A stretch of 64,000 nucleotides of DNA, from NCBI GenBank assembly GCA_018002295.1, contig JAGNGI010000004.1, positions 3,345-67,344 on the forward strand, written 5' to 3'. Origin of the DNA: Fidelibacterota bacterium. GTDB lineage: Bacteria > Fidelibacterota > UBA2242. Positions 43,982-44,632 of this stretch are shown in pieces (within the stretch, counting starts at the first letter, position 1; each line of letters starts with the position of its first letter). Both the position numbers and the translations under genes were made by a program. The notes beneath the pieces were generated by a model. The model made no database searches. It had not been told where the DNA came from and saw nothing but the letters and a program-made list of their open reading frames with translations.

Positions 43982-44632
43982 TTGTTCAAAGACAAATACC
44001 GTGTTGAATCTATTCGATTACCAGGATACGATTATTCCCAACCTGGTGCATATTTTATTACAATTGTTACGCACAACCGGCAATGTTCATTCGGGAACAT
44101 TATTGATGATGAAATGATGTTGAATGAATTCGGTGTATTGGTGCAAAATGAATGGTTGAAAACCGGTATTATTCGTCCGAATATTAATATTGATGCATTC
44201 GTTGTTATGCCAAATCATTTACATGGAATTATAATTATAACGGATAATGATAATGGACATTCCCGTGATTCCCGTGATTCCCGTGATTCCCGTAGAGACA
44301 CGTTGCAACGTGTCTCTACGATTACGGATACGATTACGGATACGGATACCGATACAATTACGGATACGGAAATGGGGACGGAAACGGATACGGGGACAAT
44401 TGAACAATTTGGGAAACCCACAAAAAATTCAATTCCAACCATTGTACGATCATTCAAATCAACCACAACAAAACAAATTAACCAAATGCGCCAAACGCCA
44501 ATGCAACCGTTATGGCAACGAAATTATTTTGAACATGTCATTCGCGATGATAATGAATTAACCCGTATACATCAGTATATTATCAACAACTCTAAACGAT
44601 GGGAAGAAGATAATTTGAATAAATTTTTGTAA
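43982..44632 (+). CDS. IS200/IS605-like / REP-associated tyrosine (Y1, HUH) transposase homolog, interrupted in-frame by a repeat tract
   Basis: YFITIVTHNRQ…, HUH motif VVMPNHLHGIII, later SIPTIVRSFKSTTTKQIN and catalytic-Tyr region LWQRNYFEHVIRD. A ~46-aa low-complexity insert (SRDSRDSRD…TITDTITDTDTD…) lies between the HUH and Tyr motifs. TTG start. Confidence 0.65.
   Translation: MFKDKYRVESIRLPGYDYSQPGAYFITIVTHNRQCSFGNIIDDEMMLNEFGVLVQNEWLKTGIIRPNINIDAFVVMPNHLHGIIIITDNDNGHSRDSRDSRDSRRDTLQRVSTITDTITDTDTDTITDTEMGTETDTGTIEQFGKPTKNSIPTIVRSFKSTTTKQINQMRQTPMQPLWQRNYFEHVIRDDNELTRIHQYIINNSKRWEEDNLNKFL
44260..44395. repeat. compound repeat tract inside the transposase ORF: 9-mer x3.9, 30-bp perfect palindrome, hexamer ACGGAT-like x13
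   Basis: ttcccgtga at 44260, 44269 and 44278, with a partial fourth copy. cgtagagacacgttgcaacgtgtctctacg at 44291-44320 is a perfect palindrome. acgatt/acggat/accgat… units run 44318-44395. All unit lengths are multiples of 3. Confidence 0.85.

Follow-up and report, generated by a model that had tools for sequence, protein, structure and literature searches.

This study concerns a gene, and a palindrome within it, in a 64,000-nt stretch of contig JAGNGI010000004.1 from a Fidelibacterota bacterium (hereafter the window, by which we mean this stretch at its full length of 64 kb). Our results make it very probable that the product of the gene is a REP-associated tyrosine transposase (RAYT, or TnpA_REP) of subclass 2.4 (RAYT group 4), and that the palindrome is a copy of the double-foot repetitive extragenic palindrome (REP) cognate to this subclass, inserted in frame into the loop downstream of the HUH strand. 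In such a cognate REP, a GC-rich stem would be framed by GTAG as its 5' head and by CTAC at the 3' end. Translating the element here, as RDTLQRVST, would be tolerated because the insert that contains it is predicted to form a disordered, peripheral loop.

The protein is a RAYT-type HUH/Y1 enzyme. A preliminary description of the window, made from the sequence alone, had proposed an enzyme of the IS200/RAYT type, and matches from Pfam, NCBIfam, and Foldseek bear this out. The open reading frame (ORF), which encodes both MPNHLHGII and RNYFEHVIRD, matches the Pfam family Y1_Tnp (PF01797) at 29.7 bits (cutoff, 23), while the IS200 model reaches only 17.7 bits, far below the 74.6 bits of the NCBIfam RAYT model REP_Tyr_transpos (NF047646). 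The protein has 4462 homologues, and in an AlphaFold model built on 50 of them the core has a predicted local distance difference test score (pLDDT) of about 90. When this model was compared with known structures, the top Foldseek match was 4ER8_A, E. coli TnpA_REP in complex with a REP hairpin, with a root mean square deviation of 3.0 Å compared to 6-14 Å for insertion sequence (IS) enzymes. It ranked ahead of the transposases of IS608, ISDra2, and IS200, and matches 1-30 were all Y1 transposases (E values, 3.7e-6 to 1.6e-3). We assign catalysis to Y199 because it aligns with Y115, the catalytic tyrosine of E. coli TnpA_REP (PMC3479197). Specifically, query residues 174-203 (MQPLWQRNYFEHVIRDDNELTRIHQYIINN) align in sequence with residues 90-119 of 4ER8, placing N203 on N119, and W178-Q179 is present upstream of Y199. 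The earlier placement of the catalytic tyrosine in RNYFEH was wrong: the tyrosine lies in QYIINN, and RNYFEH represents the WQxxF/Y box, whose Tyr position is occupied by F in E. coli TnpA_REP. With the true tyrosine, the claim that the insert falls between the HUH motif and the catalytic residue still holds.

In the AlphaFold model, the insert is located between the HUH strand (residues 79-86) and a helix spanning residues 151-170. Its central feature is the palindrome, of which positions 44292-44319 (GTAGAGACACGTTGCAACGTGTCTCTAC) make up a 28-bp double-foot GTAG REP, the palindrome adding one extra C:G pair. The REP is laid out as GTAG-AGACACGTTGCAACGTGTCT-CTAC, in frame, between H81 and Y199. 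A spacer-less inverted repeat of 15 bp is expected about 6e-5 times per 64 kb, and 100 dinucleotide shuffles of the window yielded no palindrome match at ≤3 mismatches. On either side of the palindrome are short tandem repeats (Table 1). Tandem Repeats Finder resolved those on the right as an array of TACGGA (11.8 copies, 44323-44393) with a superstructure of period 12 and 18. The left-hand units (CGTGATTCC) keep the phase of the left foot (CGTAGAGAC), and the right-hand units (NTACGR) repeat the right foot (CTACG). All of the unit lengths (9, 30, and 6/12/18) are divisible by 3, and the frame is open throughout. The 9-bp repeat, the 30-bp palindrome, and the 13 hexamers had been listed in the preliminary description as in-frame features, and Tandem Repeats Finder together with an inverted-repeat scan recovered all three in place. 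The element can be read in two of the three frames on either strand; only two translations of it are observed because the frame that begins with TAG is closed. Rfam gave no match at the locus. When the whole insert was folded as a possible extended hairpin, the centroid structure retained the central stem only, and pairing between the flanks was weak.

Table 1. Positions of the RAYT gene, its catalytic motifs, and the elements associated with its insert (window coordinates, except in the last row)
Feature	Position	Strand	Remarks
RAYT / TnpA_REP-type Y1 HUH gene	43982-44632	+	216 aa from TTG 43982
HUH motif H79-L80-H81 within MPNHLHGI	44216-44224	+	N78, H79, and H81 invariant in alignment of 50 homologues; aligned to H59-M60-H61 of 4ER8
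Variable insert, residues 91-145	44252-44416	+	pLDDT <50; length and sequence hypervariable among homologues
9-bp tandem repeat ATTCCCGTG x3.9	44259-44293	+	Tandem Repeats Finder, 100% match; encodes (SRD)n and runs into the left foot of the palindrome
Perfect palindrome, 30 bp	44291-44320	.	15+15 nt, 100% complementary, spacer-less; translated RRDTLQRVST
13 hexamers (A/G)(T/A)TACG	44321-44398	+	In-frame reading by eye; encode (IT/DT/ET/GT)n; begin at the right foot CTACG
Second insertion hot spot, after KQINQ-R (residues 170-172)	44489-44497	+	Empty in the window gene
Catalytic tyrosine Y199, motif YIINNS (QYIINN)	44576-44578	+	Invariant in homologue alignment; aligned to Y115 of 4ER8
REP-truncated RAYT 3' halves	L131, L133, L135, L136, L153, L155, L162, L174, L177, L184; e.g., L136 ~6250-6400		

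The palindrome is a REP with a foot at both ends. A GTAG tag at the 5' foot of a palindrome is the defining feature of REPs (PMC3479197, PMC3733652), and our identification follows from the GTAG and CTAC feet, the dispersed copies of the element, and its position beside related RAYT genes. Relatives, whose DNA was chosen by protein similarity for comparison of the loop, have this element in the corresponding loop, where it forms a perfect 30-40 bp palindrome in every case (twice in L001, and in L002, L003, and L185). This loop-1 copy keeps its position and its frame in RAYTs down to about 42-50% identity. Some relatives have a second copy at another loop, a second hot spot after KQINQLR, where they carry a full or a half REP in two different frames: RRDTLQRVSTPMQRVST, read in the same frame as at the first loop, in five proteins (P0016, P0034, P0044, P0045, and P0063) and, in the other frame, VETRCNVS or METRCNVS (P0064, P0059). 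A remnant of the right arm (ACGTGTCTCCACG) is kept at this site by L186. The element also occurs outside of RAYT coding sequence. One locus (L004) has several copies upstream of the gene, along with four degenerate copies in loop 1 and two at the C-terminus, and in two others (L063 and L087) the element flanks the RAYT gene on one or both sides in addition to internal copies. The flanking in these three loci resembles that of a classical REPtron. No relatives were found in viral contigs.

Two further observations were made in the surroundings of these relatives. In L001 (10001-12400) the RAYT gene is tandemly duplicated, and behind each copy lies an ORF of about 150 aa without a Pfam match. 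That ORF contains a perfect palindrome of another sequence (GGTCGGGGTTCAAGATTTTGAACCCCGACC, 12287-12316), which reads as QNFEPRP-type repeats in translation and may represent a second family of in-frame palindromic elements.

A wider distribution emerged from a scan of one genome per species with a 22-nt core in which two R and two Y positions were left free and the feet were not part of the pattern. The scan returned at least 120 matches, and the statements about dispersed copies that follow hold among the matches listed. A GC-richer version of the element, GTAGGGGCACGTTGCAACGTGCCCCTAC, is a dispersed repeat in many phyla, including Planctomycetota (Brocadiales), Nitrospirota, Thermodesulfobacteriota, Chloroflexota, Acidobacteriota, Bacteroidota, Dadabacteria, and others, and several genomes hold six to seven copies on different contigs. 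The locus lacked a RAYT homologue for 111 of 129 copies. Although the feet had not been searched for, both GTAG and CTAC were present in 94 of the 129, and the element was nearly always exactly GTAG-GGGCACGTTGCAACGTGCCC-CTAC, that is, 28 bp inside unique flanks. These findings agree with the suggestion in the preliminary description that a REP-like element had been captured inside its own transposase gene, given that the same element is found in relatives, is dispersed, and flanks related RAYTs. The related palindromes expected elsewhere are present in other genomes and absent from the rest of the 64-kb window. As an aside, copies in a Deltaproteobacteria metagenome-assembled genome (MAG), JALWQB01 (L010, L020, L044, L053, and L064), have flanks that are identical over about 100 nt (peptide PKQYFYRPELKFSAGRGTLQRAPTHPFLNRNIELKSLP), so that the REP there forms part of a larger repeated unit.

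Some dispersed copies are located within unrelated genes. The GC-rich 28-bp REP lies in frame inside recG (L120:2711-5044), in the helicase C region; inside pheT (L092:5178-7283, minus strand), between the B3_4 and B5 domains; and inside the gene of an Eco57I-like methyltransferase (L088:1-1914, minus strand). Thus, three of the five long ORFs tested that span dispersed copies are real genes with a REP inside or between domains recognized by Pfam, and the possibility that all spanning ORFs are spurious was ruled out by these domains. A fourth ORF encodes a MacB/FtsX-type permease in which the REP is upstream of the first recognized domain, and the fifth (L005) had no Pfam match.

What has been conserved, judging from sequence comparison, is the DNA palindrome and not the peptide RDTLQRVST, because changes in the stem are compensatory. 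Paired changes separate the window's variant (GAGAC...GTCTC) from the common one (GGGGC...GCCCC), and in the genome scan the two free stem positions covaried with their partners, with Fisher p values of 4.5e-7 and 1.3e-11 that overstate the evidence, since the copies are not independent. Likewise, the feet GTTG...CAAC occur as a pair in place of GTAG/CTAC. In L185 the center reads ATGCAT instead of TTGCAA, which turns TLQR into TMHR, and yet the 30-bp palindrome is still perfect. It could be argued that RDTLQRVST functions as a peptide motif whose codons produce the palindrome as a by-product, since T-L-Q-R is at least 90% conserved at the loop in 50 homologues. However, the palindrome is kept while the peptide varies (RGTLQRAPT, RGTMHRAPT, WGTLQRAPT), the loop is predicted to be disordered, and the identical DNA is, in most copies (about half of the dispersed ones), either intergenic or translated in the second open frame (VGARCNVPL). 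The compensatory changes and the use of another frame effectively refute a peptide motif, and we give that explanation almost no credence. A literature search for the peptide RGTLQRAPT found no paper.

By analogy with E. coli TnpA_REP, the enzyme would bind the REP hairpin in single-stranded DNA. It would read the GTAG foot and then cut and rejoin the strand using the HUH-bound metal and Y199.

Our comparisons also revealed extensive allelic variation around the REP. We compared insert alleles by anchoring on conserved DNA on either side, in the 24 closest relatives (the window together with MAG and metagenome contigs). Among these there were 18 different inserts of 24-234 nt, each with a length that is a multiple of 3. 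In close relatives, the tract to the left of the REP measured 28-64 nt, which corresponds to between one and several 9-bp units, and that to the right 64-160 nt. Variation of the repeats across strains had been named beforehand as a check, and it is present. Short-read assemblies can collapse or expand repeats, which raises the question of whether the tract could result from misassembly of low-complexity sequence. This is exceedingly unlikely. A 156-nt allele, one base off that of the window, recurs in four independent assemblies, and graded alleles are found in many samples and projects with the REP and its flanks always the same. With near-identical and graded alleles recurring across independent assemblies, the tract is a genuine hypervariable polymorphism.

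Variation is not restricted to copy number. Other sub-lineages use different units (RD/RN, GGT, SE, and SDME), and we found tandem duplications of half REPs (PMQRVST, LRRAPT, and RRGTLIQ). Over the several sub-lineages with tracts on both sides of the palindrome, the units include SRD, RD/RN, GRGF, TD, SE, and SDME. In a close relative (L186/L187), the REP and the left tract are gone and an insert of only 24 nt remains in an intact ORF; its sequence could be explained by a deletion between flanking hexamers of the ACGGAT type. Pseudogenized copies, with a frameshift or a stop, also exist among relatives.

The tracts could have arisen through replication errors at the palindrome. Both the (SRD)n and the (T-D/I)n tract would be products of slippage or template switching from the feet of the hairpin (CGT/AG on the left and CT/ACG on the right). 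With the hairpin stimulating slippage, the tracts would expand and contract freely, and length changes other than multiples of 3 would be eliminated by selection against frameshifts. Such frameshifts would abolish the catalytic C-terminal half of the enzyme, so that only changes in multiples of 3 would persist. It is possible that the enzyme's own action contributed to making the repeats. The preliminary description had predicted that slippage would alter linker length without breaking the frame, and the 18 alleles are in accord with this. The same description had also raised selection for in-frame length variation. On such a reading, the repeats would form a contingency-like, length-tunable linker whose variation would modulate the activity or interactions of the enzyme. 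The extreme diversity of alleles, all in frame, and the existence of several sub-lineages with tracts of differing units on both sides of the palindrome speak for an adaptive linker. Yet the segment is predicted to be disordered and peripheral, its units and composition vary freely between lineages, proteins that are otherwise almost identical have inserts anywhere from 24 to 234 nt, and an allele without a REP has an intact frame. Moreover, pseudogenes exist, purifying selection is expected to spare in-frame units, and classical contingency loci have frame-shifting units. Purifying selection alone would leave multiples of 3, and we regard an adaptive linker as unsupported and very unlikely. 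A simple-sequence-repeat on/off contingency switch was ruled out by unit lengths of 9 and 6 nt and by the lengths of all 18 alleles.

Rearrangements coincide with the REP as well. About 10 contigs carry the 3' half of a RAYT gene that starts exactly at the REP and is joined to unrelated AT-rich DNA. In these truncated halves, the 8 nt to the left of the element are its inverted right flank (GCCCTATT / REP / AATAGGGC), creating a perfect palindrome of 44 bp. The contigs probably represent one event that was sampled repeatedly, and the extension suggests fold-back or a template switch at the hairpin.

Despite this evidence, a number of findings weigh against our assignment. One is the distribution of the AT-rich variant found in the window. 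The exact 28-mer occurred 67 times in a metagenome collection, and 66 of these copies were inside RAYT genes (381 kb of surrounding DNA). The idea of a cognate dispersed REP rests here solely on homology to the GC variant, since copies of the AT variant are nearly all in RAYT genes. Furthermore, the window contains no second copy of the palindrome, of its 14-nt half, or of its 12-nt center. The expectation that the palindrome would match subterminal hairpins flanking the gene was not borne out either: a search for such hairpins or for terminal inverted repeats at the gene returned only chance-level pairs (e.g., I5, 13/15 nt), and no REP flanking the gene in the manner of a REPtron was found in the 64-kb window. 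The NF047646 score is below the model's cutoff of 80, just under it because the insert splits the match into two stretches. With respect to diagnostic residues, the motifs given for subclass 2.4 by Quentin, Siguier, Chandler, and Fichant (2018, BMC Genomics 19:475, PMC6006769) are NH[IFV]H, WQ, and YIxNNP. The HuH motif of the window protein is NHLH, with an L outside the published set, and its Y motif ends in S (YIINNS), where most relatives have P. Finally, the expression and activity of the window copy are uncertain, and expression may be impaired, because the ATG start of relatives (MTLFKDKY...), two codons upstream, reads ATA here (43976-43978), with TTG 43982 as the next possible start.

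The single AT-variant copy outside of RAYT genes (L137, 772-799) follows a T-run, has no RAYT match in its locus, and is apparently intergenic; it is the sole hint of a dispersed AT-variant copy in this lineage. Unlike the GC variant, then, the REP of the window's lineage seems to be kept only inside the gene of the enzyme. An alternative explanation is that selection maintains the intragenic palindrome because it serves the RAYT itself in cis, as a DNA or RNA site, be it a protected REP "master copy" that moves along with the gene, an autoregulatory hairpin, or the enzyme's own site of cleavage or recombination. Action of the enzyme on the palindrome would then create the flanking repeat variation and the rearrangements. 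In favor of a cis-acting site, the AT variant lacks a dispersed population and yet is a perfect palindrome in all copies, the position and frame of the loop-1 copy are constant across divergent RAYTs, the repeat tracts begin exactly at the two feet, and the truncated contigs break and extend precisely at the REP. However, the close relative without a loop-1 REP has an intact ORF, exact-match searches are biased toward perfect copies, and the truncated contigs resemble a single event. Hairpin-stimulated replication slippage accounts for the same data without enzyme action, unrelated genes tolerate the same element, and Quentin et al. regarded the region as peripheral and probably neutral (PMC6006769). 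On balance, we find selection for a cis-acting site unlikely. It is similarly doubtful that in AT-rich lineages (Marinimicrobia, Bacteroidales) the RAYT-embedded copy is the sole surviving REP and has been selected as the enzyme's own cis site. If this were true, the embedded copy could seed REP populations after transfer, autoregulate its gene, or act as a breakpoint for recombining that gene, and the foot-anchored hypervariable repeats, the truncations, and the palindrome extensions exactly at the REP would be explained along with it. Our preferred reading remains a copy of the cognate REP of subclass 2.4 that is tolerated in a permissive loop.

Directly downstream of the RAYT gene, in the stretch 44589-45247, an ORF at 44637-44921 is a C-terminal remnant of HsdR, a type I restriction protein (about the last 100 aa, with 35% identity to residues 894-977 of the HsdR of L001), and the break directly adjoins the RAYT gene. 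Next comes a gene for a YgjP-like metallopeptidase (44918-45247), immediately followed by an IS3-family element on the minus strand (45472-46564) that consists of orfA (HTH_Tnp_1, 46283-46564) and orfB (rve integrase core, 45472-46269). Relatives of the window RAYT recur in type I restriction-modification/GmrSD islands (L001, L129, L147, L168, and L186), sometimes as tandem duplicates. Elsewhere in the window, Rfam identified a tmRNA gene (13636-13989, minus strand, 184.7 bits) and a tRNA gene (11274-11349, plus strand). Aside from the palindrome described here, the sole long perfect hairpin in the window, at 35984-36016 (AAGAGGAAGGACGGA-TTT-TCCGTCCTTCCTCTT, with a 15-bp stem and a 3-nt loop), lies just upstream of an ORF starting at 36049 and is probably a terminator.

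The locus is a clean and population-rich example of a little-known, published oddity, a domesticated transposase gene with its own target palindrome in frame. It offers three lessons: an element can be conserved as DNA across phyla, it can nucleate hypervariable in-frame repeats, and one lineage can retain it almost solely in the gene of its enzyme. Such near-exclusive survival bears on how partnerships between RAYTs and REPs are founded, transferred, and lost. There is also a practical implication for annotation, in that the element explains peptides such as RDTLQRVST, RGTLQRAPT, and VGARCNVPL that recur in many "hypothetical" and housekeeping proteins.

Comparison with known systems places these features in context. 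In the IS200/IS605 family, hairpins flank the gene and define the ends of the element, and TnpA is a dimer with its Tyr on a swapped helix and no insertion domain. The window enzyme would share with these transposases the Y1 HUH chemistry and the recognition, on single-stranded DNA, of a hairpin with a 4-nt guide at its foot. It differs in that the hairpin is inside the gene rather than at the ends of an element, and in having an insertion domain. The REPs of E. coli are imperfect, bulged hairpins with a single foot that are extragenic and present in hundreds of copies, whereas the window element is perfect, spacer-less, two-footed, and inside a gene. Nevertheless, E. coli TnpA_REP (YafM, of the REP/BIME system; 4ER8; Ton-Hoang 2012, Messing 2012) and the window protein have in common the Y1 HUH fold, the positions of the HUH and Tyr residues, the GTAG foot, and, among relatives of the window gene, flanking of the gene by REPs, even though their sequence identity is only about 16%.

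In their account of GTAG REPs, Di Nocera, De Gregorio, and Rocco (2013, PMC3733652) described intragenic copies in "REP-decorated" proteins and REPs that overlap the 5' or 3' ends of RAYT genes; Nunvar 2010 makes no mention of intragenic copies. Our element resembles this superfamily (PMC3733652) as a palindrome of 20-40 bp with a GTAG tag, in having sub-families with complementary stem changes, and in its in-frame copies in DNA repair and tRNA-synthetase genes, here recG and pheT. It departs from it in that the published copies are at the ends of RAYT genes and the window copy is in a mid-gene loop. The high and mostly extragenic copy number of the superfamily is also not matched by the AT variant, while the GC variant is multi-copy in several genomes. 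Rickettsia palindromic elements, which Ogata and colleagues reportedly described in 2000, are said to be palindromic selfish repeats that sit in frame in surface loops of functional proteins. The in-frame insertion of a palindrome in a surface loop is shared with the window gene, but those elements are 100-150 bp long, unrelated in sequence, without an associated Y1 enzyme, and not in the gene of their own mobilizing enzyme.

The closest counterpart is subclass 2.4 itself (Quentin et al., PMC6006769), which is RAYT group 4 of Bertels et al. 2017. This subclass has REPs in frame within tnpA_REP between HuH and Y; the REPs are double-foot, with 5' GT[AG]G and 3' C[TC]AC, and are listed with GTAGGGGC...GCCC scaffolds. 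A hypervariable insertion domain with short DNA repeats lies between beta3 and alphaC and appears as a peripheral extension in the model. The window protein shares the WQ, the YIxNN(P) Tyr motif, and the longer HuH-Y distance, and its variable insert corresponds to the beta3-alphaC insertion domain, short repeats included. Its REP is likewise double-foot and in frame between HuH and Y, with a scaffold, GTAG(G/A)G(G/A)C...G(C/T)C(C/T)C, that fits the subclass list, and both groups are scattered over phyla, Bacteroidetes included. By contrast, a Marinimicrobia host and the exact REP (center GTTGCAAC) are absent from the published list, and strain-level alleles, a second hot spot, and truncations at the REP are not described in the Quentin text, as far as the text consulted shows. 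Flanking or dispersed REPs, moreover, were not seen in the window's lineage. On this comparison, the core arrangement is already published for subclass 2.4, and the window gene adds a host phylum and a REP sequence variant. What may be new is the near-confinement of the AT variant to RAYT genes, together with the series of alleles at strain level, the second insertion hot spot, and, at the REP, the truncations and the extended palindrome.

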